DNA of 64,000 nucleotides, taken from positions 111,910,001 through 111,974,000 of the forward strand of contig OZ024742.1 of assembly GCA_964016885.1 (NCBI GenBank). The letters are read 5' to 3'. Shown here one piece after another: positions 3,243 to 56,117 of the stretch; the stretch's first letter is position 1; the number at the start of each line of letters is the position of its first letter. The DNA is from Eledone cirrhosa (taxonomy: Eukaryota). Made by a program: the position numbers and the translations under genes. The notes under the pieces were generated by a model, which did not search any database, was not told where the DNA came from, and saw only the letters and a list, made by a program, of their open reading frames with translations.

Positions 3243-3747
3243 GGAGAATAAGAACAAACTAGATAATGCTAATAGGATTTTTTCATAGTAAAACAGAAAA
3301 ATGAGAAGAAAAAAGTATATAGTACCGGTTTCAGTCGAAAAAAAATTCGATTTCACTGGAAGCAGTAATGGTGAGGAGGAGGGGAAGAAGTAGAAGAAGG
3401 TGTACGAGTAATGATAGCAGTATAGTAAAGGAGGAAGGAAAAGCAAAATAAGAAAACGAAGAAGGAGAAGAAGAAGGAGAAGAAAAAGGAGTCGACAGGT
3501 AGTTTTGGTAGTAATATTATTATTATTATTAGTAGCAGTTGAAACTGTCCCTGGGACTGACCTTAGAGGTAGAGTCACCTATCAATTGACCTGTCGCAGT
3601 AATTGGTGTAAATATATCTATTTTCTTAATATTTCCGTAGGAAATACTGTCGCACTTAATTTGCCCGTTGAAGTGATAGTTGGGAGCTAGTTGCAGTTTC
3701 GTCTCTGGAGGATGCATTTAAAGCGAATTCGTATTTTGTGATAATTA

Positions 3748-3920
3748 TTTCTACTTTAGGCACAAGGCCAGCAATTACCCAGTGCATTACTGGTACTTTA
3801 TTTTATCGACCCCGTAAGGATGAAAGGCAAAGTCAACCTCGGCGGGATTTGAACTCAGATCGTAAAGGGACGTAACTATGCTGGGAAGCATGGCGTCCGA
3901 CGCTCTACCGATACTGCCTT
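3748..3920 (-). mobile_element. tRNA-derived SINE
   Basis: Minus strand has A-box-like GGCAGTATCGG, B-box GAGTTCAAATCC and body GCCTTTCATCCTTACGGGGTCGATAAAATAAAGTACCAG, repeated many times in the window. Confidence 0.9.
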
Positions 3921-8048: not shown

Positions 8049-8118
8049 GTAGAACACTGGAGAACCGCCTAAGGTGAAACAATTGTTCTCGGTATGGTGA
8101 ACTAACTGCTGTGTTACT

Positions 8119-8120
<2 letters not shown>
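8047..8120 (+). mobile_element. Solo pseudo-LTR scrap with 3' half of a minimal hammerhead
   Basis: TAAGGTGAAACAATTGTTCTCGGTATGGTGAACTAACTGCTGTG is identical to 55701-55744. Confidence 0.8.
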
Positions 8121-8199
<79 letters not shown>

Positions 8200-8204
<5 letters not shown>

Positions 8205-8378
8205 GATGGAAGTGTGGTAAGGAACCAGATGGACCATAACACACCAGAGTAGTCAATACTTAGGGTAGTAGAATGGGTAATAGGAGAATGTTTCACCTCG
8301 ACGGCAGAGCTCAAACTCTACTCTAGAAATAGCCGTTGAAACGGCTTGAGCTCTGCCGTCGGGTTCAAACATTTTCCT
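8200..8378. mobile_element. Inverted+direct pseudo-LTR remnant of the 21.6-24.6 kb PLE family
   Basis: 8200-8310 matches 21650-21750; 8325-8378 (AGAAATAGCCGTTGAAACGGCTTGAGCTCTGCCGTCGG) matches 24509-24546; flanked by (TA)n. Confidence 0.85.
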
Positions 8379-9588
8379 ATATATATATATATAATTTGTT
8401 TTACTGATTTCTGATTCAAGTAAACTGAATTTTTTGTACTCTCTCCTACAAGGAATATAATATTTCAAATATGTGGGTATAAAATGCAACCGTATCAGGC
8501 GCATTCTCTTTTAATTATTACATTACACCGAACATAACGTGATAAAAAATAACGCATATATTGAACCGTACACTATATACTTATATACAATACACATATA
8601 GTAATCTAGATGATGGTCTTTTCAGCAGTGATCACGTCATGGGTAATTCCACAATCCTGTAAGAATGATAACCTTTAGACCTTCGGGTTCATTATCCACC
8701 ATCAGTGAAGATTAGTCATTCGAAATTAATGCAGATAACCCAGTAGCTTATAAATATATTGTTTGCAAATAATGCATTTTATAAAATGTTTAACTGCATA
8801 CAGTAAGGTGTTATCGGGCTACTATTAATTAGAAGTAGCAGTCACAAAGCGTGTAAATTTGTATATAAACATTTCCTGAAAAAATCCTTTCATATTGTAC
8901 ATACATATGTCTCGCTGTAAGCCTTTTAATTATTCTAAGAATTCAATGTTTATCAGACAACAATAAAACACGTCTTACATATTATCGTAGTAATGTTATA
9001 TTTCACAGGAACATGTTCATATCTCACCTTATCGAGCTTTACATATCTTCAGGTTGAATATATCTGTCTCCGTAATGTATGAACCGTCATGAGTTCAGGA
9101 ATATAGAAACTGTTGCAATATCGACGTCATCCATTTCAATTGCTATATTGAAAATATAGCAATAATGGTTTTGAATATAGAATAATGATTTTGAATTTAT
9201 TTCCCCGGTGATGCACACAACTATATTTTTTAACGAGACGGATATCTGAAAAATGTGAACAATAAAGTAACATTGAATATGCCATAACACAGAGATTAAC
9301 TGTCATGCAGAAGCGCTTTTTTTGTTAAAAATCCATTACCTCAGTCTTCCATTTACTGGCTAACGTACACATTATTGTGTAATGGCAATGTGCAGCTTGT
9401 TACGAAAGTTTATTGCATATTACAACAGTTTCGATATCGATCTGCTAGATCCCAACTCTTAATCGACAGCTCCTCAGATATGCGAGTCTACTTAAGTTGT
9501 CTCATATGTGTATATACACACATACACACACACACCTATATATATATATATACATACACACACGCACAGACTAAAACATGACATCCAG

Positions 9589-9636
<48 letters not shown>

Positions 9637-10265
9637 CTCTGGGTGTCATGTTTTATTGGAAGCTTGACTCTCTCGAAATTAATATCGGTTTCACACCAAG
9701 AATCTTGTAAATCAAACTAAAATGGTGAAGCATATATTTAATTAATTTCTACACAGTTCTCATACAATTTATACCAGAAACAATGTCAGAGTTATGTAAT
9801 ATGTGACTTTTATAGACAAATATATCATATTTTATCTTTGATGCAGGCACATATTTTCAGCTTGTTAAGGGGCTGCAGAAATTAAAAACACATGTTGCAT
9901 TGGGCTAGGATTACCATTTAAGAATCAAATGGACGTTCGTAGTGTCATATTTTTTTTCGGAGATGAGTGTAGAATGCATTTGATGAACAGAATAGCCCAC
10001 TCATAACGTTAACAAGCAGGTGGCTTAGCATTCTACCGAGACGTGTACCCTTAACATGATTATATGGGAACTTCGTTATGACATTTTGTGTGGCAAGTCT
10101 TTGCTTTTGAATTGCATGTATAGTCCACTAGTCGATTTTCTATTTATGTCAATTCACAAGACGCGCAGTTATGACAGATGATATTGCCCATGATTCCATA
10201 TTGTGAGATCTTATAACTGAGAAGCAAACATATCAGACCCTGCTGTACCCAGATAGATTGATTAA

Positions 10266-10319
<54 letters not shown>

Positions 10320-10999
10320 CTTGTTTATTTGCTACTTAACCATATATGTTTTGCTGCATATAGGATATAGTTATACGGTGATAATAATTACTAAACAATA
10401 GTTATACCTTACAACCTTGATATTACGCAGAAGATTTTTCGGTAATCCGTTGATAACCAATTAGATGAAATGTGTTTGATAATGGTAGAGGAATTCGTAC
10501 AGAATATTAAGCGAATTATATTTGGTGATGCTCGGAATGGTAATTCTTTCAAATGTAAAGCTAAATTATATTATATCGTCTATCATATTTATATTCCAAA
10601 CATAGGCTAAAATAATGTATTATTCAAATTCACTGCACGAATCCGGCTATCGTTGCAATATGGAAATGGGCTTCATTTTGACACAATAGCTTTCAGGCTG
10701 TTGCTCAAACAGGTTTTCTTTTGTTTATTTTACAATTTATTTTATGGTGTCAAGAGATAGTATGTGAAAAGTAATTTTGTATAAAAGAGCGAGATCTATA
10801 TCAACATTCAATGTACAGGACTATGCAGAATATATTTAGTACCATAGCCGGAGTGGTGTATAAAAACTCTAGAGAAAAACTGTTAAATCGCAATGCATAA
10901 CTTATATACAATTATGCAAACGTAATACGAAATTAAGATCGATGAATTGGAGGAATCTCAGAAAATAAGATGTTTGGTAAAGGTTTGCAAATGAATATA

Positions 11000-13330
11000 T
11001 CTACAATGTTATTGGTCATAGATGAAAGAGAAACATACTAAAAGAAATAAAAGCTGAAGGAATAATCTTACAGTACACATTAAAACTATGGAAACAAAAC
11101 TTCGAAAATCCAGAGTCATTGAAACGATGGGTAAAGAGTGAAAAGTGCTTCCCAAAATATGAAGCAGAATTAAAGAAAATACATTACTCAGACAGCCCCT
11201 TAAAAAAGAAACTGAACAAAAAAGAATCTTTAAAGAAACAGCCAAATTTCCAAACTTACCTCATCCAAACCACAGACATAATGCTCCTCAACTCAGAATG
11301 AACGCATTTTAAAGCCAAGCAGAAGAAATAGACGCAATCACTGCAATATAGATAGTAACAAAAACTCTACCAAAAGACGAAACTCCAAGATATCAAATGA
11401 CACCCCATACCATAAGCCCAACAAATTTCAGAAGAAATCCATCCACGCTACGTGAAATACCAACAGATACTATAGCAGGTAACACCCACGAAACTAAATT
11501 AATAGAAAATCAACCCACAGCCGCACATCAAACAGACAATTTGAAAACGACAGCTGCTCTCCAAATAACAATCTTTTTTATCACACGGACAGAAATAACA
11601 AGCTACACGTGAAATTCAACATATGAGAAACCGAAGGTAATCAACCTTCAATTGACAAACGCCAAAATAGATATTTTAAGGGACTGAAATTTACACCCAC
11701 CCGACAAAAATCACGCTTTCCTGAAATGCAAAACTACATTACATAATTACATCAAAAGCCTAGATTAACTGATTTTTTTCTCCGAAAACAATGGCAATGC
11801 GAGGAAACACTAGTTTGAAATAAACGTGATTTCTGCTGAAATAAAAAAATAAAAATAAATGAACAATTCTCTAGTCGCCTACTGCGAACATATGAATTTT
11901 CCATTTGGAAAATTTGGAAATAGAAACAACAAATCACATTTTTCAGAACACAAATGGAAGAACCTAATTAATTTAGTAGGAAACTATTATGAAATCAGAA
12001 TTGAAGAAGCTGATAAAGGTAGCAATGCAGTCCTAATGAATACAGACAAATATAAAGATCTAGTACTGAAAATGTTAGAAGACAAGAGTTACCATGAAAC
12101 ACCAACCAAATATGAATAATCAAATACAATAGAATATATTTTAACTTTTCGAAATAAGTATTGCAAAAGCCTAAACGCGAATAAAATTGACATAAACCAA
12201 TTTAGATGGAAATACAATTTTGTGGCCAACCGAAAATACACAAATACGAACTGATAAATGGTGCTTGTAAAGCCACGACAACCAAATACACCCAGTTAAC
12301 AACTGCAGATGATTTACAGATTAAGCCAATTAAAGAAGAACCTGCATGTGAATCACACTTACCGAGTAATTTCCCGGACATCCTTTTAAAACCCAACTAA
12401 AGATATGTGCAGTGCTACATAGGATATGATGTGGACATGCTGAATAAGTTCCCCAAATCAGACATTTGTTTCGTGAGGCGATGTTAAATTATAAGTAAAC
12501 ATACCCCATGAGAGTGGAATAACTACAATTGGATAATGGCTAGACAAACTGATCCGAATTACCGACATACTTCAAAAATATATCAACCTGGAAGGATTTA
12601 GACTCATATTGCGAAACTATTAATGTTCAAATGATCTTGTACCGACAAATATCAGGAGCTGCAATGAGCACGGAAATAGACCATACACACGCCAATATAG
12701 TCAGAGGCTTCCATAACCAAAATATTTAGAGACAATCATTAATAATATTTTGAGACACATTTCCCACATAACTATGAAACAACTGGATAAGTTACGTGGG
12801 CGATTGCTTTATCTTATGGCAGGGAAATCTTCATACACTCTTCGTAAATCCCAAAATATAATACATACGCTTAGGGGCAACATCCATTTCACAATGGAGA
12901 TTTATACTAGGAAATTAGCTTTTTAGATAACACAAATTCAAAAACAGATCGAAGAAGAGAACAGATATTTTCCATAAACCCACAAAGTTTAAACAGTACT
13001 GTTTACATCAAGTCAACCCGAGAACATACAATTAGAAAAACTAAAAAACAATCTTACGATATCATAAAAAAGGTATTGAAAGGGATAAACCTATATATCC
13101 AAGAGCGAAGGACAACCTTCAAAACCCCTATATCGAAATGTTTAACCACCTCCACAAATTCATTCCTATTCTATATGAAAATGAAAAACAAATTCTAGAA
13201 CCACAAATAACATTAAGATTAAAAGACAACTCAAAACACTAAAGCATGGCATTACTGAGTCACCGAACCCTTAAAAAAAAATATGTTGAACCTCATTGTT
13301 ACAAAACGTGAAAGAACAAATTTGGTATCT
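11000..13330 (+). pseudogene. Heavily decayed Neptune-like Penelope element (RT remnants)
   Basis: Remnant motifs GLKFTPT, IEEADKGSNAVLMN..Y..L.D..Y, PKIHK, YRQISGAAM, IHFTME, with many stops and frameshifts; clade call from recalled motif similarity. Confidence 0.7.
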
Positions 13331-18964: not shown

Positions 18965-18968
<4 letters not shown>

Positions 18969-20763
18969 ATAATAATAAATTTGAAGACTAAAATCCAAAG
19001 AGGGCTCGATAAGGATAAATATATATCAAATATATAAGAACCGTAGAGCAAATATTTATTAAAATAACAGATTAAAGTTTAATCAAAGAATCGCAGCTTT
19101 CACCCTTAACGGGATCTTCTGAAAACTATTAGCTAAGATCTTTATTTCCCTTATTACGAAGCATTTCCTCCCTACACATAAATATAGTAAAATTTTTAAT
19201 AGAAATACTATTAAAATGTCTTACTCTACGACTCCTAACCTTGCACATAACATAACAGCTTCAAATTTAGTTAAACTACCTAGCCGTAGGAACACGTGCA
19301 ACCCTGTAGTTAGTACTAACTGTAATTGTAGGAATCGGGTTGATTGCCCCCTATCCGGGAAATGCCTCTCTAGAAACATTGTCTACAAATGTAAAGTTGA
19401 AACACCCACGTCCCGTATGGCCTACATAGGGTTAACCGCCAATAGATTCAAGCAGCGTCTTTACATGCATACCCATTCTTTTCATTACCCTCTAAGAAGG
19501 AATATGACGTCACTTTCAGCTTATATCTGGATTCTAAAAGACAACCACCCCCAATTTAAGTTACACTGGGAGATCCTAGCTAGGGCTAGATCGTATAACG
19601 GAAATAAAAGACCATGTGACCTCTGCGCCGCTGAGGCCCTGGAAATACTCTACGCCACAGACAACATCTTAAACAAAAAAATCTGAGGCAATTTCGGCTT
19701 GTAAACATAAATTGCACAAAACTTTCCTTACAGCCCCTCAGTATACCCTAACGGATAGTACGATCTATACGTGGACATATTACGTCTTTATGTGGTAGCT
19801 AAGTATATGTTTAGTTTATACCATTACTTATTTGCATAGGTAAGTATATATTACCTGTATGTTTTGTGAAGGTACGTATACTTTCTGCTACGTATATTTG
19901 ATTGTTTATGTTATGGCGTAAACATTTGTTATATATTCTGGTACATATGGTTTGGTTTTGTGTATACGGGAGTTTTTTTGTCTGAGTGAGTATGCAGGTT
20001 CATACGTATGTAGGGTGTGTGTATATGTGTACTTCATGTTTTGGTTGACTTACGTCTCCTAACATTTGTGTATTTACATGTAGGTATGTGTGTGCGCTTG
20101 TTATATAGGTATTTATTTATTATTATACGTTTATATAATTATTTATTTATTTGTATACACGCACACACACACACACATATATTTATATGTACGTGGTTTT
20201 GTATACCTATGGCAAATGTTTTGCGTATGCTATTGTATGTACGTATTTGCATGCGTGTATGCATTTATTTAATTTCTATTACCTCGGTATTGTATTTATT
20301 TACTTTATTCTTAACTCTGAAGCGGAGATTCATTCGGTTTCCTAATTAGAATTTAGTCTACGACTTCAGCTATACCATTTACGTGGTTTTGTCTTTGCGT
20401 GCCATTGTTCTCCACGCTCCACATATGACGTATTATCTTCGTTTTTTCCGTTCATTGCCAGAGAACGTCTCTATGAACCACCTAAGAGAACATTAGTCTA
20501 CGACTTCTTTTATACCATTAACGTGGTTCTCTCTTTGCGCGTAATTGTTTTTCACCGCTCCTATTAATGACGTATTATATTCTTTTTTTCCCGTTCTTTG
20601 CCAGGGAAGGTTTCGACGAACCAAATTATCGTCTTCCTGTCTTCCTCCGGTTGCAACGTTTTTTGAAATATCCAGTTCTGCGTTTACAGATTGAATTTGT
20701 TAGTTTCAGAAGATCCCGTTAATGGTGAAAGCAGCGATTCTTTGCTTAAACTTTAATCTGTTA

Positions 20764-20770
<7 letters not shown>
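18965..20770 (+). mobile_element. 5'-truncated YRDDG-type (Hydra-clade-like) PLE: GIY-YIG plus 3' UTR, with inverted pseudo-LTR at 5' end
   Basis: ORF 19216-19686 has CNCRNRVDCPL, IVYKCKV..YIGLTANRFKQR, CDLC; 19058-19128 is an inverted repeat of 20701-20770; (TA)n on both sides. Confidence 0.9.
20350..20623 (+). repeat. Diverged ~140 bp tandem duplication in PLE 3' UTR
   Basis: TTAGTCTACGACTTC..TATACCATT.ACGTGGTT..ATGACGTATTAT..GAACCA occurs twice. Confidence 0.85.
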
Positions 20771-20840
<70 letters not shown>

Positions 20841-21333
20841 GAAAGACGTAAAATAAGAAAATTAAAAAAATTAAAAATTAACTTACTTACTAAAATGTTC
20901 ACTCCAACTAATTAGTTTCTGTAATGGGATGAAGATAGTTACGCAATGTAACTGTCGAGAATTCATTACGTCATCAGGGAGTCTATTCTCAGCTAAGTCT
21001 CCAGGCAATGCGCGGACACTAGGGACTCATATAAAAATAATAATAATTCGGTGGATGGAACAGCTAGCGGGGACTGAATTCCAAAGCACTGAAAAAGTTC
21101 ACTGTCTCTGGTCAAATGGCACATTCTAACGAATCAATCACGTGACACTGAGGCTAGTCGGAAGGAGTGGGGTAGTAAAATGACAAAAGTCTACTACCAC
21201 TACAATAAGTTAGTAGTGGATTTGGCAGGTTTGCTCAACAAATAAATAATTTGGAGATAAATATTGAGAATTAGTATATTTACCGACATATTTGTACAGA
21301 TGTACGCTAATGCTAGCAAATACATAAGTTATG

Positions 21334-21562: not shown

Positions 21563-21639
<77 letters not shown>

Positions 21640-21723
21640 ACAAACGAATTGTGGTAAGGAACCAGATGGACCATAACGCACCAGAGTACTCAATACTTAG
21701 GGTAGTAGAGTGTGAAATATGAA

Positions 21724-21832
21724 AAAGTATGACCCCGACGACAGAGATCAAGCCGTTTCGACCGCTATTTCTGGACTAAATTAGAATGTTTAGCCTGGTG
21801 AATAAATAGCCGAACTTGTCAAGGGGGTACGT
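21724..21832 (-). ncRNA. Hammerhead motif, U3-A8 variant (inverted pseudo-LTR copy)
   Basis: Reverse complement of the 24448-24558 motif; TTGTCAA at 21816-21822. Confidence 0.65.
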
Positions 21833-24447
21833 CCTTATATAGGAAGAATGTAGTTGTCAAGAGGATTGGTTAAAATTTGTTGTAAACACCGACACAACAG
21901 ATTCCTACAACAACTCCGTAGCAAAATAACAGAGCATGAAAACATCAAGGACATCATGGTGCACTCGGACAAAACTGTACACATCTACTTCGTCAAGCCT
22001 GACAGATACCACACACTGATTAGGAGCAGCCTAAACTCCACCTATAAAAAGGCTAACTATTCAATTATCGATGACATAACTCGACAACACATTACCTACA
22101 TGGACAACTCATTACCTCCAGCCTGGGGGTCGCCGACCGCACTGAACCCCTAGACCAACGGACGCCCTACTTCACACTGAAGGACCACAAATCCGACTTC
22201 GACCGCAAACCATCCATTAGGCTTATAAACCCAACGGGGTCGGACATAGTGAGAATCAGTAAAAATATCCTAGACCGAGTTATACCAAAAGTTAAGCAAA
22301 ACGTGAGACTTAGCCTATGGGTCAGCACCCAGGAAGTAATCCCATGGTTCAGGAATATGGAGGACAAACGAAACACAAAATTCATCCAGTTTGACATAGA
22401 GAGTTACTATGCATCTATTACCTTACCGCTCCATACGGCCGCCTAGGACTTTGCCGAAACACTCACACCCATCACTGACCAGTAAAGAAATATCATTCTC
22501 CAAGCCAGGAAGACAGTCCTACTTTTCGACAACTCCAAGTGGATAAAGAGAGCTCCCGACTCCCCCCTTCGACGTCAGTATGGCCGCGACGGATTCGGCC
22601 GACGTCACATATATTATAGGATTATTCCTACTATTGAAACTCATCGAAATGTTTCCTGCATTAGGCGGTGGTTTGTAACGAGATGATGGGCTCCTCACCT
22701 TCAAGGGGTACAACCCCAGTAGTACAGAGCGGGTCCGTAAACAACTAATCAACTTCTTCCGGGACTGCGGATTTAAAATCACCCTACAAACGTCAGTAAT
22801 CCGAGTCACTTTCCTGGACGTTATCCTTAACCTCGAAAATGATCTGTACTACCCATACAGGAAACCAAAAGACAACCTCCACTACATCCACCGCCGCTCT
22901 AACCATTCTAGAAACATCACCAATAACCTGGTTAAAAACATCTCCCTCCACGTATCTCGTTTGTCCGCTAACGAGCAGATATTCGACGGACACGCGCCTC
23001 ATTACAACCAGGGCTTCAAGCGGAGTGGCTTCCGGGAGGAAATATCCTTTTATCGAGCTTCCTTCAGCGGAACCAGCAGGCGACACCGCCGCTCACGCAA
23101 CGTAACGTGGTTCAATCCTCCCCATAATGCCGAGGTGGCAACACCTATTGGGAAATTAGACTCCTCGAAAAACACTTCCCATTACAAGACCGCTACCACA
23201 ACATAATCAACAAAAAACACCATCAAACTCTCCGACAGCACCAAACCTAACTTCGCACCGTCTTCTCAAACAACAAAAAAGTCAACCCCTATGGAAGACA
23301 TATTCTAGACATCAGTGGAGAGCCGACCAGGAGGTGTAACTGCCCTGATAGATCTACGTGCCCCCTCAACAACAAATGCGGAGAACGTAACGTGATCTAC
23401 CAGTGCAACGTGAGGACGGACACCTCCAACAAAGCTTATATAGGATTTTCCGCGTGTGACATCAAGACCCTGCTCTACCAACACGGATGAACTTTCCGAA
23501 ACCCGGTCCGGCAACATTCCACTACACTTTCGGGTCATATCTGGGACCTCAAAGATAATAATATAACCTACAATCTCACTTGGAGCTTAATGTCCAGAGC
23601 TAACTCTTGCACGGGAGGACGCCGTCCGTGTAACCTATGTTCGGAGGAAACATTACAAATGCTGTTTTCGAGGGACCAACTCCTAAACAAGAAAGACGAA
23701 CTGGCAACCGCGTGCAAACACAGATTGCGTAGGACTTACCTCGCCCTTAAACCCCATAACGACCCGGGTGGGTAGACAAGTGCTGATACCCCCACCCCAA
23801 CACTGGCCGAATAAGTTAGGGGAAAGCCCAGCTTACATAGGTAGATGTATATCTTTCATTTTCCTCTTTGTCTTCTTCTTCCCCCTGTCTCATCCTATCA
23901 CTTCCTTCCACCCACTATTTTCTTCCACGTCTGCTTTTCCTCTTTCGGCTACCCCGATGCAGCCCATCGGGCTTCTGTAGCATCAGTCCCCCAACCCTGT
24001 AATTTTAAGATAGAATTGGCCGAATACGTTTTACTAACTACTTATAGCAGATGTGTTAAACTCCTGTTTGTATCAGTTTTGTAAATTCTACAAGTTGTGT
24101 TCTATTCTCAACTTATTAACCTATAATTGTAAGATAGCATTGTGATTTTTTTTATTCATTTCTCACTTTCTAATTTTATGTATGTTTTTATTTCTTTCTA
24201 GTATCTTTTATTGTCTCCTACTCTCATTCGATTTACCTATTCTATAACCTCCCTCCTCCACTTCATACACTATCCTTAGAATCTGCTGTATACATATCAC
24301 TTTCAACGCTTGACCGATCCACTCACTCCCCTATTGTTCTACAGGTAAGTTCAGCCACCCCTACCTCCCACCAAATGCCATGATAGACATTTGTGTTTAC
24401 AACACATTTTAACCAATCCTCTTGACAACTACAATCTTCCCATATAA

Positions 24448-24557
24448 GGAAGTACCCCCTTGACAAGTTCGGCTATTTATTTACCAGGCTAAAAATTCTA
24501 ATTAGTCCAGAAATAGCCGTCGAAACGGCTTGAGCTCTGCCGTCGGTGTCATACTTT

Positions 24558-24558
<1 letters not shown>
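24448..24558 (+). ncRNA. Type I hammerhead ribozyme, U3-A8 core variant with long stem II
   Basis: CCCC-TTGACAA(24460-66)-G..CGGCTATTT/AAATAGCCG..C-GAAA(24522-25)-CGGC ttgagctct GCCG-TC-GG; GUC site at 24542-24544. Confidence 0.75.
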
Positions 24559-24588
<30 letters not shown>

Positions 24589-26035
24589 TATGTGTGTATG
24601 TATGCGTGTCTGTATATGTAGTCTGCAGCAGTTTAGAACTGTCTGTTCTTTTATTTCTAGTCAACATTTTGAATGTATTTATATCTCGATTTTATATTTG
24701 TTTTGACTAGTTATTTCCTCTCATACACCCCAGAAACAGATTTATTATTCTATATATGCCCCAAATGGTATTGCAAGTGCAATATCGCATTAATGTCTCA
24801 AACTGCCCTGCCAGCAAGATGGCTGACAGGGCAGGTAAGGTTGCAGGTGTCGTTTGTTTTCTGTAACTGTATACATTTCCTGCTAATATTGTATTTAAAT
24901 ATGTCCCCAACCTACTTCTATTTTGATGAAACTAAATTTGTTCATAGTTGCATGAGCCCATTTTATCCTATCCCTCCATCACTTTTTCTCCCCATCTCTG
25001 TTGCCTTTCCCCTCTCTTTCTCTCCGCCTTTCTCTCTCTCTGTTCAATATTGCTCGACGTCTTTTCCTTATTTTTCTCACTGATATTGTATTTATCTCTA
25101 TACACGCCAACACGCATCCAGTTTGAGAACACCACACACACACAACACATATACACACACACATACATATATACACACACACATCATATACATATAAATA
25201 TATATGCAAAAGTAAACGAAAAAAACCCAATAAAGCCAATTGATACAGTGCAATGAATATACATTTTAGTTTAACGCTTGATATAATAGAAAAACTGTTT
25301 TAACATTTTGGACGGAGATAGAATGAGAGATGCGAAAAAAGAAAAGAAAGTCAAGAGCAAAAAGAGGAGGAGACGAGACGGTATTTTACAAGAGTAAACG
25401 CACCTGTGCGGTTTGTCGGCCACCAGGCTGGCCAGGTTTGTTACATTATAGATTTTTAGTACTGTAAGTATGACACTTCCACCGGATCTATCATCATAGT
25501 AGCAAGAGTAGCAATTTTCATTCAACCCAAAACAAACTATAAACACATATTTTCCTCTCAAACATATACTCCCCGGCCTTAGGTAACTAATTGATGGTAA
25601 ACATTACTTTTAATATAGATCTGTTTTATCTGAGTAGCGCAGAGCTAAACAGAAACAACTTCAAGAATATTCTTATTAATATGGCTAATGACAAACAGAT
25701 ACTGGAATTAATTTGATGATAGGTTTGTGCTCTGCACTCACCTAGAGCTAGACAGAAGTAATAATAATCCAAATAAAGCCATAATTATTTATAACATGCA
25801 TATTGTTATTCCATGTGGAGTTCATCAATTATATCCACAGAAATATGTGCCTGATAATTACCTCAATGACTTGTCATGGGAAATTTAAACGCAGAACATG
25901 AAAATGTGTTACTAATAAAGAAATGTCATGTTACACCACAGTATAAAAATTGAATTATGTCAAGCGATTATACGTTATTTCCTCCACAATTTGCTTTCGT
26001 TTATATCGATTCACTGCAGTGTTGATTCAATATCA

Positions 26036-26275
26036 TGGCAGTATCGGTAGAGGGTCGGTCACTATGCTTTTACGTATAGATTTACGCCCCTTGCCATTCT
26101 GAGTTCAAATCCCGCTGAGGTTAACTTTGCTTTTCATCCATACGAGGTCGATAAAATAAAGTACCAGTAATGTACTGGGTATTTGCTGGACCTGTGCCTA
26201 AAGTAGAAGCAATTAATTGTTTCTACTTTAGGCACAAGGCCAGCAATTACCCAGTGCATTACTGGTACTTTATTT
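26036..26275 (+). mobile_element. tRNA-derived SINE followed by an inverted partial copy (tail-to-tail)
   Basis: A/B boxes at 26036-26112; 26218-26275 is the reverse complement of the SINE 3' end. Confidence 0.88.
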
Positions 26276-27327
26276 TAAGAAACAATTAACGTGACTAAAA
26301 CATACTCCAATAGATATATAATTTCATCAGTCATTGGAACATCACCATTGGACGCTGTTTGGGTATTAGTACTCCGTTCTGAGAGAAATATCAACAAATG
26401 AAAGATAAACGATCCCCAACACTACTGCTCTGAACAAGTAATCTATTTATAACACCGAGAGTAATAAACGAGTATTCGAAACTAACATCATTTAAATTGA
26501 GATGACCAGAAGTAATATGACACCACATTATAATTGGTGTGCGGAGTACCTCTATAACAGGCATAGAATATGGAAGAATGACATAGTGAACTCTACCACA
26601 TTAATAATTCTCGACAAATTCGCAACCTTGCACATCTTACTGAATGAATGCATACTAATATGTAATAATATGATGCACAGCAGCGTCTAAATAACTGTGA
26701 CATTGCAAACTGACTATTTTCTTTCCAGTGTGTGCGACAGCTTACAGTATTTTCCTTCAAATACATACGACCTCTTATAAGAAAACCTTATTTTCTTGGT
26801 GAATCACAAAAAAGCCGTGAGGATGTGTATGCTAAAGGAAGGAAGAGAAAAAACATATGAATGGCACAGGATATTCTAAATGAACATGATATGATTTACG
26901 TTTCTTTATGGTTGAATATGTGGATGCGTATGAGTGTGTGATTTAGAAAGTGTATTCAGTATTTCAAGAAAATATAAAGATACTAATTAGTAATTCCTCA
27001 TTGCAATGGTATAAAAAAATCGTTCATTATTGGCAAGTAGCAAACCGATTGTTTATTTCCCATGTAACCCGAGAAACACGAATATTTTTTGGAAAAAGAT
27101 TAAGTTATGTTATTTGACTTAATCAAGATATTTCTATATTTAACAAACAGATCATTTGTTGAAATAAATGCACATCTTTTTGTGGGATTTCATTTCAGTG
27201 TCTATCATTTATCTACAAAGAAAACCTTAGTCGAACTACCAAATTGTTTATTATGTATGCATGTATACATGCATACATAAATAGATACAGACACACACCC
27301 ACACACACCCACACACACACACACACC

Positions 27328-33384: not shown

Positions 33385-33560
33385 TATTGTTTCTACTTGT
33401 TGGCACAAGGCCAGCAATTATCCCAGTGCATTACTGGTAGTTTATTTTATCGACGCTGTAAGGATGAAAGGCAAAATTAACCTCGGCAGGATTTGAAATC
33501 AGATCGCAAAGGACGGAACTCTACGCTGCAAAGCATGGCGTCCGACCCACTACTGCCATA
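33385..33560 (-). mobile_element. tRNA-derived SINE
   Basis: Same family as 3748-3920. Confidence 0.87.
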
Positions 33561-36685: not shown

Positions 36686-37869
36686 ATAGTTAGAAAAATA
36701 CTGAACATAGAGATATACGTTAAATGGTCTAACAAATATATACACACTCGCAGTACCCCCCCCCCCCGTAAAAGAAAAAAAAACATTACGAAAGCTTATA
36801 GATTATCCGACCCTGATAAAGCATGATCGGATTTCGTCATGTACATATCAAAGCATGGACGTAGTTATTCGGAATGTTTTGCCATTAACCTCCAATTCCA
36901 TGAATTAAATTTCCATTAATGTTACCATGACCACATATGACACACATGCATACCTTGGCCGATGCATAAATACACGCGCGCTTGCGCACACTCGTATGGG
37001 TTAAATATATATTATATATGTATCAGTATATATATATATGGACATATGAATTCGTATCTGTATATGCATATTTGTATGAGTGTATGCTAGTATTACAAAG
37101 ATTTGCATATTTCCTGGAAACGCCAGGTTATACCGAATTTTCTTTCTATCCTGTCACATATTTGTTTTTCATGCGTTATAGCCCTGGTAGTAAACACACT
37201 CCTACGCACGCGCACATAAACAAGCACACACACACTTACAAACAAACACACTCAGAGACTTGATATATCCTGTATTTCAATTTCTATAATTAATCTTTAT
37301 ATTATATAATAGTTTCGTGTTTGTAACCACAATCCAAATTAATAATTGTTATATATATCATTGTTTGATGTTCATTTAAAGATTGTTTGATAATTTTTAA
37401 AGATTCTTTATTTTATGAAATCGAATCACACGATCGAATGAAAAGTTAATGGTCCCTAGAATAATGACATAACATTTTGTGCAAGTGGACTAACGTCATT
37501 ATTCGTAACAATTCATGTTATATATGTGAGGTAAGTTTGAAAATGCTTTTGGTTATGTCAAGGTATTTTGGTTATGTTCAATTTCATTTTATTTATATTT
37601 TACGCATTGGAGCATAATAATATAGTTATCAAGAATATGTCACTAACAGGTAATCATCCAACCTTGTGGCTGCAAATCCATTGACGTCATGGCATATAAC
37701 TAAAAAGGAAAAGATCCCCTTATATATCTTAGCATACTGTGAACGTATGTTTCACCTGAATGAATAACTGAGATATTTTAATAATTGTTTCTACTTTTGG
37801 CACAAGGCCAGTGTATTACTGGTACTACTGGTACCCCGTATATATATATATATATATATAATACAATAT

Positions 37870-38388
37870 ATGTAATCTGAGGTTTTCGAATATCAGTAAA
37901 AACATTCGATTCGTTTGCATGTATGCAAACAAGACTCATTTTTAAAGCAATATCAGTATAGTTTTGTTTTTGTCTGCAGTTCTGTTTACACAAGAGCAAG
38001 AATGAAGGGTTCATTCTACTGACATCGCTTTAAAAATGAGGCTTGTTTGCATAATTGAAAACGAATGGAATGTTAGTATTAATATTTGAAAAACGCAGAT
38101 TACATTTATTGTATTCAGACATGTGGAGTGAAATTTTGTTTAAATTTTTATTTGAATATGGCAATACAGTGAGCTGTACTGATGAAGGGTGATACCCAGA
38201 AGCAGTAGTGTCTGCATTTCTGTTTACATGCCAATACAAGAGCAAGAATGAAGTGTTCATTGTACTGACATGGCTTTAAAAATGAGGTTTGTTTGCATAA
38301 TTGCAAACGAATCGAATGTTCTGATTAATATTCGAAAAAACTCAGATTACATTTAATGTATTCAGCTATGTAGAACGAACATATTATA
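37870..38388 (+). mobile_element. Non-coding HHR-bearing tandem repeat (238 nt unit) with inverted 5' piece
   Basis: Unit GTCTGCA.TTCTGTTTACA.. at 37972 and 38210; 37870-37945 is an inverted copy of the unit 3' part; (TA)n flanks. Confidence 0.85.
38171..38220 (+). ncRNA. Type I hammerhead motif (GAAA mutated to GAAG)
   Basis: GAGCTGTA-CTGATGA-AGGGTGATACCCA-GAAG-CAGTAGTG-TC-TGCATTTC. Confidence 0.75.
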
Positions 38389-48064: not shown

Positions 48065-49732
48065 TTAAGTTAGCCATGTCAGCTCATTTCTCTCAGCCCG
48101 GTTGTTAAGTGGGGGTCTGAGGTTCTTAATAACAAGTGCTTCCTTTATCCTTAAGGATCCGATGCTGCGTTCAGTCGCTAGGACTGTGACCAAGGGTCTA
48201 CCCTGTGGGTTTCCGCATTTAAGGATGTGTTTACGGAAGGAAGATGCGTTGGTGTTGATATGTTCCTTGATACGAACATGTAGGGGTCGGATGGTGCTAC
48301 CTATGTAAAACTTGTTACATTTATCGCATTGAATCTTATATACGACATAGGTGCGTAGGCAATCTGCCCCCCGTATCGGGCAGTTGCTGAGGGAACACGT
48401 CCCATCTGACTCGTCGGGTTTGTTGGAGAGGCATCTTCGCAGCGATGGTCCTGTGTGGGCCAAATGTATGTCAAGTCCCTCCGTCCGTATGGCCCTGCGG
48501 ATGGCGTTTGTGGTATATTCACTCAGGTGGGGGATTTTAAAGAAGCACCTGCTTTTATTTAAGTTTCTAGTGGGTGTCTGTCTATTGGGTCTGGGGTCTC
48601 TAATTCCGTTAATCAGTCGCTTGGGATATCCATTAGACCTGAGTAGATTACGGAATTGCGTGGTATGGGTGAGACCACCCATCGGGTCGCTGCATCTGTT
48701 AGTGATCCGTGTCAGTTCATTTAGGACATAGTTGGGGAGGGCTGAGTTGTAATGCACAAATAAGTCCTTGCACGCTGCTTTGCGGTAGAAGGTGGTGTTT
48801 ATGTCTCCTTCTTCCGAGATGTTGATACGGAAGTCGAGGAGGGCGAGTGACCCGTCTTCTCCTGTGTGTTCGATGGTGAAATCGACGTGATGGTCAGTAT
48901 CGTTGAAGATTTGGTGAATTTCATTCGCCATCTCCCGGGAAGAAGTAAGTATCAGGATGTCATCAACGTATCTGGAGTAGAAGGCGACGGCGTTGGGTTG
49001 GCAGGTATTGAACGCCTTGCGTTCCACGTGGTCCATGTACGAGATCGCAAGTATGCCGGACAGACTAGAGCCCATAGGTAGCCCAGAGATGTGTTTGTAC
49101 GTGTGGCCGAGGAAATTGAAGAGTGCATTATCCACAACGAAGGAGAGGAGTTGGTGGATGTCCGTGTGTGTGAGTCCGAAGCAGTGTAAGTTAGATGCTC
49201 GGACTCGTTCGGTCAACAGGTCGACGGCTGGGGATGCTGGTACGGAGGTATAAAGGGCGACCACATCAAGACTGAAGGCATAACCGTTGTCCTTTCTAGT
49301 GTTGGGCGCCAGATGGTGTTGTCGCTCCAAGACCACCTCCTTTGAGCTGCAGACGTGGGCTGGTAGTGTGTGTAGAATAGGTTTCAGTAGTGTGGAGAGC
49401 AGCCACGATATTTTGTAGAGTGGGCCCTCCACGCTAGAGACAATGGGCCTGATTTTCAAATCGGGTCCTTGTTTATGTGTTTTAACCAGGTGGTAGAAGG
49501 TGGGTAGTTTGCTGTTTCGAGTCATTATGTTGTTTTTTACCTTCTTTGGCAGTTTTCGTTGGACACAGATGTTAGTCCATGTGGTGTTAATGCCTTCCTC
49601 GATTAGAGTCGAGGAGGTCCCTGTGACTTTCGAGTAGAGGCTGTGGTCATTAAGATGTTGGAGAGCTAAGTTGTTGTAGGTTTCTCTCGAGATGACACAG
49701 AATTCTTTCCCCTTGTCAGAGGGAAGGTACAC
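48065..49732 (-). CDS. Penelope-like element RT + C-terminal GIY-YIG endonuclease (Nematis-like), 5'-truncated, 555 aa open
   Basis: SDKG, KTHK..IRPIV, SLDVVALYT, GLPMGS, RYVDD, LLDF, Cys linker CSLSNC, VVYKIQCDKC..FYIGST.R.L..R..EH, E...I...P.LN. Confidence 0.95.
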   Translation of the reverse strand: MYLPSDKGKEFCVISRETYNNLALQHLNDHSLYSKVTGTSSTLIEEGINTTWTNICVQRKLPKKVKNNIMTRNSKLPTFYHLVKTHKQGPDLKIRPIVSSVEGPLYKISWLLSTLLKPILHTLPAHVCSSKEVVLERQHHLAPNTRKDNGYAFSLDVVALYTSVPASPAVDLLTERVRASNLHCFGLTHTDIHQLLSFVVDNALFNFLGHTYKHISGLPMGSSLSGILAISYMDHVERKAFNTCQPNAVAFYSRYVDDILILTSSREMANEIHQIFNDTDHHVDFTIEHTGEDGSLALLDFRINISEEGDINTTFYRKAACKDLFVHYNSALPNYVLNELTRITNRCSDPMGGLTHTTQFRNLLRSNGYPKRLINGIRDPRPNRQTPTRNLNKSRCFFKIPHLSEYTTNAIRRAIRTEGLDIHLAHTGPSLRRCLSNKPDESDGTCSLSNCPIRGADCLRTYVVYKIQCDKCNKFYIGSTIRPLHVRIKEHINTNASSFRKHILKCGNPQGRPLVTVLATERSIGSLRIKEALVIKNLRPPLNNRAERNELTWLT

Positions 49733-50558
49733 AAGGTTCCTGGATCTTAGGTTTCGCTACGTAGACCAATACATCCTGCGTAGCGAAACCTTGGACTTAG
49801 AACCGGCAGGCTCGTCTGTCGCGAAAGCGTTCAACCCCTGAAACTAAAAGATCGAACGGACCACATCCGGCAACCACTGGCTATTAGATCCACAGGTACA
49901 TCTCCCAGAGAGTCCACGCAGATAATAGTGAACCCCAGGTGATCTATGAACGTTTAAACAAGACCAGCTGCGCCTGGAGCTATGCAGATGATTGCATACG
50001 CATAATGGATATCGTGCCTGGAGCTATGCAGGGGACTGCATAGGCAGAATGGATATCGCGCCCACACGGTCACCAGTACTGTTCATCCTGTTATATGTAT
50101 GTAAATATCAGTGCGCGGGATATCCCTGAGTACATTTTCCTGACCATCAATTCTTAATCAATTGTTTGTTATTTAGGCAAGAATGTACTATTGTGTCTGT
50201 GCTAATCCTATGTGTTGCTGTGCTGTGTGTGTGTAAAGTATCCGAGCGCGGGATATCCCTGAGCTAATTTTGCCTGACCGTTAATAGTGTTCTGATTACT
50301 TGTTGATGGGCAGGAATATATATTGTTGTCTTTGTTGATCCTGTATCAATAACTTTGTGATAATTTTGTAATAATTTTATGATAATTTTGTAATAATTTT
50401 GCGATAATTTTATGATAATTTGATAATTGTGTAATGATTTTGTGGTAATTTTGTGATGATTTGATAATTTTGTAATGATTTTGTGGTAATTTTGTAATAA
50501 TTTTGTATAATTTTAGAATGTTTTTTTTTGTGATAATACATGGTTAGATCACTGAAGC

Positions 50559-50905: not shown

Positions 50906-51584
50906 GAGGAGGAGGAACGTGTTGATGAAATTATGTGATTCCCATTATTTATATTAGTGATCTGGTATGTCGTATTGCTTGTTATGAATTATATATATGC
51001 GGCTACTTTGTTGGATTGAGTAATATACTTCCACAGAGAATTGCTAAGCACGATCTAGATTAGTGCAAATTAAAGTTTATTAAACGCCATTAGGATATAT
51101 TTCGAAAGACCGTATCATAAGGCTTATTTTAAGTTACTAATTCACGGAGGATGTGATTCCATACAAATTACAACATCGTATAATGTAGAAGATATGATTT
51201 TAAAGTTGTGATGATAAATTTGATTAACTTAAAATAACACTGAATGGAAATGTCCATTCATTATTAGAAGTCTGATAAGAATTAATAGAACAACATATTC
51301 AAGAATGAGAAACCAATACCAATTACTAGCAAATTGATATATAATTGTTCCTCCTTTTGGTACAGGGCCAGCAAATTACCAGTGTATTACTGATATAATA
51401 TGACACAAAGATATCATGTTACCGGGCACCAGAGTAGTATTGTACCTTGAGCGTTGGGTTGTAAATACAAAGGATATATTTAATCCATTGCCCACGCTAC
51501 AAATACCACCGGACACTCGTCTTTTCTCTTTGATTAAGCAGTAACTAAAGAATTAATACATATATATATATATATATATATGTA

Positions 51585-52370
51585 AATGTAATCTGAGTTT
51601 TTTGAATATTAATAATAACATTCAATTCGTTTTCAATTATACAAACAAGTCTCAATTTTATAGCAATGTCAGTAGAATGAACCCTTCATTATTGCTATTG
51701 TGTTGGAATATGAACAGAACTGCAGACACTAATGTTTCTGGGTATCACCCTTCATCAGTACAGCTTACTGTTCACCTGCCACAGTTAGAGCTAGTGAAAA
51801 TATATGCTATTTTCAAAAATACACAGTGACTGATCGGCCTGATTTGCATATTAGCAGACTGGTTGATCAGTCAGATCAGCATATTAGCGGATCCACTGAT
51901 CAGCCAGATTTGCATATCACCAGACTGGCCAGTCCGTTTCCTGTATCCGAGCGACAAATGGCCGGCTTTGCAAAAACAAATAAAAAAGAAATGTTCGCTC
52001 TACATGGCTGAATACAATAAATGTAATCTGAGTTTTTCGATTATTAATAATAACATTCGATTCGTTTGCAATTATGCAAACAAACCTCAATTTTATAGCC
52101 ATGTCAGTAGAATAAACCCTTCATTCTTGCTCTTGTGTTGGCATGTGAACAGAACTGCAGACACTAACGTTTCTGGGTATCACCCTTCATTAACTGTGAC
52201 AGTTTGGCAGGTGAACAGTGTGATGTATTGTTGAAGGGTGATACCCAGAAACATTACTGTCTGCAGTTCTGTTCACATGCCAACACAAGAGCAAGAATGA
52301 AAGGTTCATTCTACTGACATGGCTATAAAATCGAGGCTTGATTGCATAATTGCAAACGAATCGAATATTC
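51585..52370 (-). mobile_element. Non-coding HHR-bearing tandem repeat (435 nt unit) plus inverted copy; same family as 37870-38388
   Basis: Units start at 51587 and 52022; 52200-52370 is an inverted copy. Confidence 0.88.
51717..51766 (-). ncRNA. Canonical type I hammerhead ribozyme motif
   Basis: Minus strand AAGCTGTA-CTGATGA-AGGGTGATACCCA-GAAA-CATTAGTG-TC-TGCAGTTC; intact core, GUC site, near-palindromic stem III. Confidence 0.85.
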
Positions 52371-52389
52371 ATGTGCTAAAAAAGCGAAA

Positions 52390-52780
52390 GCCCGCATCAC
52401 CACGAAACCCTCAAGCATTTCCACACCCGGATGCTCTTGCAGAAGGCCAGAAGCATGCACTCTTTAGCAACAGTGTTACATTGCTGCAGTATTTCATGAG
52501 GTAGAAGTTACATCTTCTCGACCAAATCAATTGCAGGAGCTCACACTATGTGTTGGTATGTTGGAGGGCCGGTTAAAAGAACGCTTCCTTACTCGCCAGA
52601 CGACCTTTAGACAACCCGACAAGCGAATTTCGACGAAGCTGGCAAGCTACATAGAGTCACTCAAAGATGCAGATGTGAAGTACTCCATTCAATGGAAAGT
52701 TCCGATCAAACCAGGGCCTACGGAAATGGAGAAATCTTGTGTAAGCCATGTATTTATGAAAGGGTGAATATATTGCAAGT
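52390..52780 (+). mobile_element. Decayed GIY-YIG fragment of a YRDDG-type PLE
   Basis: VGMLEGRLKERFLTRQTTFRQPDKRISTKLASYIESLKDADVKYSIQWKV is homologous to 55200-55360. Confidence 0.85.
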
Positions 52781-53097: not shown

Positions 53098-53263
53098 GAA
53101 AAATGTTCAAGACGGCAGAGCACAAGCTGTTTCGACGGCTTTTTCAGTCCAGCTTGAGCTCTGCCGTCGGAGTCTTGAACATTTTCCTATTAACCACTCT
53201 ACTACCCAAAGTATTGAGTTATTGCGTTATGGTGCACCTGGTTCCTTAACACACTTCCTTCGT

Positions 53264-53265
<2 letters not shown>
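53098..53265 (+). mobile_element. Inverted+direct pseudo-LTR remnant (24.5 kb family)
   Basis: GACGGCAGAGC..TTTCGACGGCT / CTTGAGCTCTGCCGTCGG..; the tail is the reverse complement of 21645-21730. Confidence 0.8.
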
Positions 53266-53328
<63 letters not shown>

Positions 53329-53402
53329 ACACACACACAAACACACACACAGACTCACAAACAAATATATATATATGAGTGTGTGCATATATATAATATA
53401 TA

Positions 53403-55817
53403 GTCCAATGCTTTGTTTAACAGCGTCTCTGAGATCGCTGGGTAAAAATCAACAATGTCAAACTGTGAACTTCGCTTTTTGGGATTTGAAGGAGTTAAAC
53501 CACTTAATTACGGAGTCGCTGTTCTCCCACTGGGGCAGGTTGGACTTGGTCCTAATGGTCTTAACTATGTTTCTAAGTATGGCCTTACTGACTAGACCCA
53601 TATCAGTGCGTGCTGGGTTTATTAGTCTACATGTGGGTTTAGAAGTAAAGGCTACCTTGTGATCTTTCAGGGTGAGGTACGCCTCCCGCTTAGCTAGATA
53701 TTGTAGCTTCTTATCTACCTTAAGTGCGGCAGCAAGTTCTTTGGCTTCTGTATTAATGTCGTGGTAGGCCATAAGGTTAGCTTTCTTATATTTGGAAGTA
53801 ATAGCGTTATGGGCCAGGTGGCGGAAAGTGGCTTTGTCGACTTCGTAAATGTTATTAGTTTTGTCGGAAAGAACGAAAGTGTTATTAGAAGACCTAAATT
53901 TCTTGATATCATTTCTAAGTTTAGTTTGAAAGGTGTTAGGATGTTTGCTAAAGGAAATGTTAGCGACTAAGTCAAGAAGGTCCGCCTCGAAAGGAGCAAG
54001 TTCAGTTACCTTAGGAGGGTAGGTTCTCGATTTCAGGTTGAAGGTGTTATCGGTGCCTGTAATGTTGCCATTAGGACCAAGTCCAACCTGTCCCAGTGGG
54101 AGAACAGCGACTCAGTAATTAAGTGGTTTAACTCCTTTAAATCCCAAAAAGCGAAGTTCACACAGTTTGACAATGTTGATCTTTACCCGTCGAGATCAGA
54201 GATACTGTTAAACAAAGCATTGGACTTCGCTACCACTTACGCTACCTTCGATGGTTTAGACAGGTAAATCATCGCTCACTGCCGGAAATCCCTCCTCTTC
54301 AACGACGGAGTAGCCTGGGCAAAGAAGTCAACAACTTCAGACCTATTCGACGTCTCCATGGGTTCGTTTGACAGTGCTGACGTATTCGACATGGTTGGCC
54401 TATTTATTTTAGACATATTACGTGTTAGATTCCCGGACTTAAACACGGGAATATACTGCGATGATGGACTGACCTTATCGAGCCATAAAAGTGTTCACAA
54501 CATTGACAGGTTTAAAAAGGACTTAGCTTCTACCTTCAATGAGTTAGGACTTAGGATAACGGTAGCTACCAACCTGTCTAGCGTAGAATTCTTAGACATT
54601 AATTTAGACCTTCGCAAACACACCTACACACCCTTCCATAAGCTAAACGAAAAACTCAATTACATTCACAAGGACTCATGTCACCCTCCCATTGTCTTTA
54701 GAAACTTCGTAAATAATATCAGTACTAGAATCCCAAACCTCTCCCCTAATAAGGCTATCTTTGACAGGGCGGCACTTACTATAACACGGCGTTAGCTAAC
54801 AGCGGCTTCTCGCAACCTATCACTTACTCTCCCACTATCAACAATAGCAATAAGAAACGAAAGCGTAACAATAGACAAACTATCTGGTTCTCTCCTCCCT
54901 TCTCACTCAATGTTAAAACCAATGTAGGCAAACAATTTCTAGCCCTCTTAGATAGACATTTTCCCATAGGTCATAAATACCGCTCCATCTTTAACTGACA
55001 CAAAGTAAAAATAGGATACTCCTGCGCTAAGAACATGAAGGCCCACATCACCAACAGCCCTAAGACCAGCACCCCACCAGGGTGCTCTTTCCGTAAGCCT
55101 GAAGCTTGTCCCCTTCAACAGCAATGCAACACACCCGCTGTAGTTTCTGAAGCTGTAGTCACTTCCAACCGACGAAATCAACCACAGAAGGTCAAATATT
55201 ATGTGAGTATGGCGGAGGGCCGATTTAAGGAACGCTTCCTGAACCACCAGTCGACCTTTAGGTACCCGGACAGCCGTTCATCTACGAAACTCGCGAGCCA
55301 CGTATGGTCACTCAAGGACTCAAGTATAGACTACTCCATTCAATGGAAAGTCATCACTTAGTCCAGGCCATACGCAATGGGAAATCCCTCGTGTGGACTA
55401 TGTGTTGATGAACAAATAAATATTCTAAAGAGATTGTGCAATAGCGATTGCCTAAACACGAGAAATGAATTATTCACACGTTGTCCACACGTCTCGAAAG
55501 CCTCTTACGTAACTAAAAAGCTCCGGATTGAATTACAACAACATCCTAATTTTCTTATCAACTAGAACTTTTCTGACTTTCGCAGTTTTGTCGCTTACAC
55601 CTCTCGCACGCATTTTAGTATTGCCTTGTGAAGTGATCGTGTCTGTGCATGCGCGTTCGTACGGTCGTACATACTGTTCCATTACGAGCTGAGGATCCGC
55701 TAAGGTGAAACAATTGTTCTCGGTATGGTGAACTAACTGCTGTGTAACCACTTCTACCTAACTCTTCCCATAGACTGAGTGCTCTACCACTACGGTTATT
55801 ACCTTCCAGTGTTCTAC

Positions 55818-56055: not shown

Positions 56056-56117
56056 GTCTGTATACATATATGTATGTACGTATACATACATACCTACTTA
56101 CATTTATATATATAGTC

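Follow-up and report, generated by a model that had tools for sequence, protein, structure and literature searches.

A hammerhead motif at 24448-24558 of the window (the whole 64,000-nucleotide stretch of DNA analysed) combines a U3-A8 core with a stem II arm of 55 nt; the terminal repeat that holds it belongs to a dead Hydra-clade Penelope-like element (PLE). The reading favoured here, to which we give a probability of roughly 0.68, is that this hammerhead likely cuts its RNA, slowly, after position 24544. Judged by its sequence, the motif is a genuine type I hammerhead and is predicted to be self-cutting; its long arm leaves both the ribozyme class and the element class unchanged. The role of hammerheads in Penelope-like elements is described in the published accounts as an open question, and this family offers a natural test of it, with a 32-nt arm that can be removed and a helix III capable of folding either by itself or in a dimer.

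Architecture of the hammerhead

Inspection of the window sequence placed every element named in an earlier note on this DNA where that note had put it. On the + strand, the 5' strand of stem I (four C, 24456-24459) faces its partner at 24545-24548, the third pair being broken in this copy by damage at T24547. The first part of the catalytic core, TTGACAA in its U3-A8 variant (24460-24466, with N7 at 24464), is separated from GAAA by the 55 nt of extended stem II (24467-24521). This arm is built of the G10.1-C11.1 pair (24467 with 24521), a 2x1 loop, a 9-bp helix (24470-24478/24511-24519) enclosing 32 nt, an 8x3 internal loop and an inner hairpin of 6-7 bp, the 6-bp form of which pairs 24487-24492 with 24502-24507. 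Predicted pair probabilities are high for the inner hairpin (0.78-0.99) and the outer 9-bp helix (0.68-0.82) and low for G10.1-C11.1 (0.02). The remainder of the core region occupies 24522-24544 and comprises GAAA (24522-24525), stem III (24526-24529/24539-24542) with the GAGCTC palindrome inside its loop, U16.1 (24543) and C17 (24544), so that the GUC site lies at 24542-24544 and cleavage is predicted after 24544. The 3' strand of stem I and a short end (24545-24561) precede the (TA)n tract. The earlier description of a TTGACAA core, a GUC site, a 9-bp stem II around some 30 extra nt and a CGGC/GCCG stem III with GAGCTC in its loop is thus borne out in each part. A second TTGACAA, at 24422-24428, stands 38 nt upstream of the core and is also present in the inverted copy.

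The core has the N3-UGAN-N8-A arrangement of a type I hammerhead with its 3-8 pair, the GAAA and an NUH site. Constrained folding forms all three helices, stem I being complete in the family, and yields a hammerhead fold 3.3 kcal/mol above the minimum-energy fold for the window copy (3.3 and 5.5 kcal/mol for two copies). Folding stability is ordinary (z of -1.16, with 29 of 200 shuffles equally stable). Helix III has a computed energy of -6.5 kcal/mol as a lone hairpin and of -26.9 kcal/mol as a dimer.

A descriptor that allows 30-90 nt between the two parts of the hammerhead core, run on the masked window, returned three motifs against a mean of 0.04 across 300 block shuffles, a control that favours the window copy because the stem I rule had been relaxed so that this copy passes. 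No block shuffle of the 300 combined a stem II of at least 9 with a stem III of at least 4. General models behaved differently. A search of Rfam with 24380-24565 at E up to 10 gave two matches, neither of them a hammerhead, and window-wide no hammerhead appeared among 150 of the 307 matches, which were microsatellite-driven only. A covariance model trained on the hammerheads of 24 relatives missed the motif at E up to 10 and ranked a short hammerhead at 55683 first (E 0.031); this model is a weak test, its alignment being out of register for rows with a 6- or 8-nt helix III.

The host element

The motif closes a 2.9-kb insertion (21640-24561) that consists of an inverted terminal-repeat arm and a 5'-truncated Hydra-clade PLE, set in (TA)n with TA arrays at 21565-21639 and 24562-24591. 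The inverted repeat aligns 21722-21889 with 24393-24559 at 93% identity over 168 nt. The inverted arm itself (21640-21889, - strand) holds a second hammerhead, with its core at 21822-21816 and C17 at 21737, together with a tail of about 85 nt that is missing at the + end of the element. The earlier statement that the motif is kept in this inverted copy (21724-21832) stands for the core and the motif as a whole, though not in every detail: one stem II pair is broken and loop III is changed.

Joined directly to the inverted arm is a decayed ORF (21890-23775, + strand) for a reverse transcriptase, a CxCx5C linker and a GIY-YIG nuclease at the C-terminus, with stops and frameshifts and with its N-terminus missing. 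Its landmarks are HSDKT (21962-21976, of which DKT is 21968-21976), the CxCx5C linker (23335-23361) and YIG (23437-23445), and the translation shows CNCPDRSTC (CxCx5C), CNLC (CxxC) and CKH (CxH) near the C-terminus. A tblastn search with a 740-aa relative spans 22165-23742 of the element. One relative, P0005, has weak Pfam matches to RVT_1 and GIY-YIG; Pfam applied to three window fragments of the element's own ORF gave neither a reverse transcriptase nor a nuclease match. The ORF is followed by a 3' untranslated region or upstream part of the terminal repeat (23776-24455, + strand) that is longer than in most relatives and is repeated in reads from 24200 on, the read comparison having covered 24200-24562.

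The published account of the Hydra clade gives as diagnostics DKT, a CxCx5C linker, CxxC and CxH motifs, and a TA target. The element has the C-terminal GIY-YIG domain, DKT rather than DKG, CxCx5C, and an insertion into (TA)n with a tail at one end and an inverted 5' arm. Among 64 long relatives, DK[T/S] is found in 63, CxCx5C in 56, RW[K/R] in 59 and DKG in none; the window copy lacks the N-terminus, where the RWK motif belongs. A FastTree phylogeny of 32 of the 63 full-length relatives, built without named reference elements, takes up the earlier suggestion of a reverse transcriptase tree: the window's three Hydra-like elements cluster (support 94) inside the relatives, far from the window's other PLE. 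An assignment to Naiad was dropped, the nuclease sitting C-terminally. The claim of a PLE terminal-repeat hammerhead with a U3-A8 core is upheld by the inverted repeat, the RT/GIY-YIG ORF and the core, the link of this ORF to the terminal repeat being known from one locus. As read from its sequence, the host is a dead Hydra-clade PLE, and this copy, 5'-truncated and with stops and frameshifts, is not autonomous. The family pattern had no match in viral or metagenome contigs, and the element's protein had none in viral contigs.

The tail of the inverted arm carries a hairpin motif (21685-21711, - strand) common to Hydra-like relatives. It occurs in 13 of 24 non-redundant related loci (L004, L008, L013, L015, L029, L038, L039, L041, L043, L049, L061, L079 and L080) against 0.5% in shuffles, the motif having been defined after the tails were viewed. 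In Hydra-like elements it lies 20-75 nt past the hammerhead cut site, and the window's two other Hydra-like elements also have it. Since the hairpin is shared with relatives, it ties the terminal repeat to the Hydra clade independently of the ORF. It is likely a recognition site for the element's protein. The hairpin was also seen by eye in two published Hydra consensus sequences. A pairing between the internal loop and the tail, spotted by eye, was discarded as chance-level.

Relatives and published precedents

Eighty metagenome loci of related elements, 51 of which offer at least 350 nt of room, yielded a hammerhead within 1.3 kb downstream in 38 cases. Their spacers measure 10-30 nt; 34 have a C3-G8 core and four U3-A8, of which one alone (L032) is credible. 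The other three (L035, L045 and L076) were judged spurious, as members of one family with poor stems. The L032 motif (L032:1932-1979) is an independent U3-A8 hammerhead downstream of a Hydra-like ORF on a metagenome contig. A relaxed pass on 25 loci added one more hammerhead, with a 36-nt stem II (L006, about 1410-1480) past a Hydra-like ORF; spacings of 58, 68 and 96 nt from the same pass were dropped by eye, where a better motif or a shorter one was evident or a closing helix was absent.

Published tables agree with this range. All 26 Hydra rows of one supplement are C3 with a spacer of at most about 26 nt (PMC8557442, File S2), and the 56 metazoan rows of another (Fig. S3) have spacers of at most about 23 nt and include two U3-A8 cases (PMC4209133). 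The 55-nt arm, about double the length that is usual, is an outlier against the 10-36 nt of the relatives and stands at the end of the clade's trend towards a long stem II. Part of this rarity may be search bias, because published searches limited the spacer, the core search of Craig et al. (2021) having used 7-17 nt (PMC8557442), and because two more motifs of the window, both C3-G8, have long arms (51 and 38 nt). That a single window holds three such motifs suggests under-counting, and some elements listed as lacking hammerheads deserve a second look.

Each of the two oddities, the U3-A8 pair and an arm of about 54 nt, already has a published precedent. The earlier note had proposed comparison with published PLE variants; the arm stands out there as supposed, but U3-A8 is in print and the published listing of PLE-X1_sMoe has a 35-nt loop on a 9-bp stem II. 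U3-A8 occurs in other natural hammerheads and is reported active in vitro, and about 1,300 U3-A8 matches are recorded for the PLE hammerheads of Schistosoma mansoni (PMC4209133). The Cercyon PLEs of S. mansoni share with the window motif the U3-A8 covariation in a terminal repeat, G10.1-C11.1 and a short stem I, but they belong to another clade, have a near-absent helix III and show a spacer of 13-22 nt in the two U3-A8 rows; Cercyon hammerheads also usually have an extra base after A9, which the window motif lacks (PMC4209133). The closest arm is that of PLE-X1_sMoe from Selaginella moellendorffii, marked as deviating in its source, with a 9-bp stem II and a 35-nt loop, 54 nt in total (PMC8557442); an inner hairpin seen by eye makes its build near-identical to that of the window motif. 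Its core, however, is C3-G8, and the element is nuclease-less, targets 28S rDNA and comes from another clade and from a plant, so that the long arm most likely arose separately. Hydra-clade PLE hammerheads, including Hydra-1_Obim of Octopus bimaculoides, share with the window element a type I motif in the 3' repeat, the C-terminal GIY-YIG domain, DKT, CxCx5C, the (TA)n target, a palindromic helix III and, in Penelope-13_HM, an inverted 5' arm (PMC8557442). Against those rows the window motif differs in U3-A8, in its 55 nt and in a longer helix III and 3' region. In the literature searched on hammerheads of octopuses and other cephalopods, on a long stem II, on U3-A8 and on C3U/G8A, the family is undescribed; Lunse et al. 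(2017), on PLE variants, could contain such forms.

Variation within the family

The 24200-24562 interval was compared with four of 15 listed runs, giving 10,414 matching contigs in X1, 5 in X4 and 18 in X5, and 15,038 matching reads in X13, a RAD run. No RNA run was among those listed for the family, which carries no information on its expression. The family is high-copy in reads of three organism labels (A, B and C), and contigs from all three labels span stem II and cover the entire motif, insert included; an insert-less form is absent from the 10 listed joints. The long stem II is a stable trait of the whole repeat family, and the earlier claim of an unusually long, inserted stem II thus extends from the window copy to the reads and to its outlying position among relatives.

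At a threshold of 4% or more and among the variant rows listed, core polymorphism in X1 is confined to N7 (C>A 42%, C>G 12%). N7 is the sole unconstrained base of the hammerhead core, and a polymorphism that spares all other core bases matches the prediction of selection on catalysis. The remaining X1 variants at that threshold fall in loops (24482, 24500, 24501 and 24538, the last being T>A at 31-78% depending on the run) or preserve pairs (G24488>A, from G.U to A-U; C24541>T, from G-C to G.U). T24547>G, present in 96% of X1 depth and 93% of X13 reads, restores four C-G pairs to stem I. A T inserted after 24501, at 46% in X1 and throughout X4 and X5, gives the inner hairpin one more pair; its scarcity in X13 (16 of 458 reads) is due to reads ending at AATT sites (24408 and 24497). 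Core and helices are conserved across the family. The 9-bp helix is invariant among the variant rows listed (35 more exist beyond these), and helix covariation is limited to one-sided, pair-preserving changes, no two-sided change appearing among those rows. Disruptive changes do occur: A24466>T (A9), G24467>T (G10.1) and C24489>G reach about 15% of X13 reads, though with just 3-5 read starts behind them, and in one X4 contig an inner-hairpin pair is broken.

Fold-back stubs and the depth step

The 3' half of the motif had been reported to recur at 8325-8378 and 53110-53175. Both recurrences are present, and each proves to be a fold-back insertion with two short arms. The stub at 8202-8380 has two arms and the hammerhead 3' half only; in that at 53100-53264 the junction joins family positions 24510 and 24504, and this same junction is the deepest joint in run X1. 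The arms in the window begin at 24503-24504 and 24510, within a zone (24502-24514, + strand) where a depth step, loose ends, joints and window arms together mark apparent copy starts and a cluster of inverted junctions. Of the 10 listed joints, six switch strand at 24503-24513.

The depth step at about 24503 is seen in all four runs, and in three of them the downstream side is 14-25-fold deeper. Depth rises from 0.11-0.19 to 3-4 million in X1, as summed contig depth and not copy number, from 25 to 350-550 in X5, from 3-5 to 16-18 in X4, and from about 700 to 10,000-12,000 in X13, where AATT read ends may bias the ratio. Agreement among the loose ends at the step is 0.38-0.48 in X1 and X13. A restriction-site artefact of the X13 RAD reads was rejected as the cause, the same step appearing in the three contig runs. 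Most family copies are probably short stubs that begin in the insert, the core's first half being absent from them, and diverged subfamilies sharing the 3' half alone could account for part of the step. With thousands of family copies, the 5' ends appear to mark copying stops. In three other families of the window, too, short arms begin in or just upstream of the hammerhead, about 23-47 nt before its cut site, and a stop at this distance may be general for PLEs.

Mechanism and alternative readings

Under the favoured reading, the arm would be a peripheral extension that the ribozyme tolerates, lying far from the active site. The cut would probably be made slowly, with help from the element's protein or from RNA dimers formed through the palindromic helix III, and would serve to trim tandem precursor transcripts. 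The 2x1 loop at positions 10.2-10.3, beside the core, could slow the reaction. Dimer cleavage and low activity have been reported for other PLE hammerheads, and in Xenopus 8 of 9 predicted retrozyme dimers failed to cleave (Li, Clavereau and Pollet 2026, bioRxiv 10.64898/2026.07.22.740005). Reverse transcription would begin in the downstream tail and copy uncut RNA back through the motif; in a lizard PLE, according to the published work, the protein assists cleavage, initiation is internal and lies downstream of the hammerhead, and uncut RNA is used. Copying would usually stop, fold back or self-prime 30-42 nt upstream of the cut site, a point that in the long-armed family would fall inside the insert and leave short stubs in which the core's first half is missing.

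The same lizard account also contains material for a rather unlikely alternative, in which the motif is a dead or near-dead hammerhead, kept as a handle for the protein or carried as a passenger by a family that amplified recently: insertion in vitro could do without cleavage, and RNA ends at the cut site were absent from the data it describes. Most Naiad PLEs are likewise reported to thrive without a canonical hammerhead, the window's sister element has U4 changed to A in both copies, and most copies of the long-armed family lack half the core. Against this reading stand the polymorphism that spares every core base except N7, as selection on catalysis predicts, and the replacement of C3-G8 as a pair. 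The stubs can also be read as run-off copies to a transcription start, with the insert acting as a core promoter, RNA starting in stem II with the hammerhead 3' half, and the 9-bp helix pairing that RNA with the missing half in the same or another molecule. A TATA-like hexamer (24474-24479) does lie 30 nt ahead of the A of an initiator-like TTAGTC (24502-24507), a combination found at 11 of 105,636 window positions, and the deepest inverted joint has A24504 on one side, a position at which a window arm starts too; PLE terminal repeats are reported to have internal promoters, with TATA plus Inr-like motifs in rotifer PLEs. Yet these motifs were picked post hoc, the arms of insert-free families begin at similar distances from their cut sites, and the other long inserts (20977 and 9477) show no such TATA/initiator pair by eye. 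The published start site of Drosophila Penelope, moreover, is upstream of the intron, and therefore also of its hammerhead. We consider this promoter reading improbable, and hold out as little hope for its fuller form, a natural split hammerhead with its start in the insert, belonging to a wider set of long-armed PLE motifs (three unrelated ones in 64 kb) invisible to short-loop searches.

The tandem array at 56-57 kb

A retrozyme-like array at 56114-57188 comprises 2.5 units of 320 bp and an inverted arm, with minimal U3-A8 hammerheads whose cores lie at 56405 (decayed), 56727 and 57047, and at 56193 on the minus strand. Units 2 and 3 satisfy the descriptor; stem II of unit 1 is decayed. As a set of non-coding tandem units with a type I hammerhead in each, the array qualifies as a non-LTR retrozyme, and it resembles the animal retrozymes described in print, which have non-coding tandem units of about 320 bp with one type I hammerhead each (PMC7229834; bioRxiv 10.64898/2026.07.22.740005). 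A PLE origin of animal retrozymes has already been proposed there, the frog cases being homologous to PLE repeats; the array differs from the cases described in its U3-A8 core.

The earlier note had joined array and element into an autonomous/non-autonomous pair, a proposal that the evidence does not support. Alignments of the array unit with the element's 3' region, tail and body scored 20, 20 and 21, values reached in 93%, 49% and 98% of 200 shuffles; the tail hairpin is absent from the array; and the element copy is itself non-autonomous. The two proposed links are weak: U3-A8 recurs independently (in L032 and in published PLEs), and the AGCTCTG match in stem III is not fixed in the family, 24538 varying as given above. 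The pair, read as descent of the 320-bp array from the long-armed family's terminal repeat and its mobilisation by that family's protein, we regard as very improbable. It draws on the weak hint given by two shared traits, U3-A8, which is rare in Hydra-like elements (0 of 26 published rows and one credible case of 38 matches), and an AGCT-centred helix III palindrome, on the PLE-like inverted 5' arm and microsatellite ends of the array, and on the reported derivation of frog retrozymes from PLE terminal repeats (bioRxiv 10.64898/2026.07.22.740005). Besides the alignments at shuffle level and the missing tail hairpin, it is opposed by differences in stems I, II and III, by the presence in the window of alternative helpers, which number at least three families of Hydra-like elements plus another PLE, and by a rotifer, in which cross-mobilisation between PLE families is reported not to have been seen. 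The array is a separate retrozyme-like element that was probably moved by some PLE, because its inverted 5' arm and microsatellite ends resemble those of a PLE insertion.

Other features of the window

Two further hammerhead-like motifs with long arms lie on the minus strand, each as a single window copy. That at 20900-20983 is C3-G8 with a 51-nt stem II arm containing an inner hairpin; it sits within an element of about 500 bp between TA arrays, and its first tail bases resemble those of the long-armed family. That at 9415-9483 is C3-G8 with a 6-bp stem I and a 38-nt stem II arm.

The microsatellite load and the repeats of the window suggest an octopus host. In the second Hydra-like element (53400-55820) there is a large inversion at the 5' side, and the hammerhead, at about 55683-55724, is of the canonical short C3-G8 form. 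The repeat of this element recurs as a fold-back stub at 8069-8122, and decayed nuclease-region fragments akin to the element are found at 2158-2611 and 52359-52760. The third Hydra-like element (18966-20768), sister in the tree to the long-armed one, carries in its terminal repeat a short-stem hammerhead-like motif, both copies of which have A in place of U4. On the - strand, an open frame of 563 aa (48065-49756) that matches reverse transcriptase and GIY-YIG represents a PLE of another clade. There are in addition a non-coding hammerhead repeat family, tandem and inverted, at 51583-52370 and 37861-38382 (core at 51758, minus strand), and a dispersed SINE-like repeat, about 180 bp long and with an inverted end inside it, present in at least 10 copies (3741-3918, 26036-26277, 33386-33553, 57817-58225 and others).
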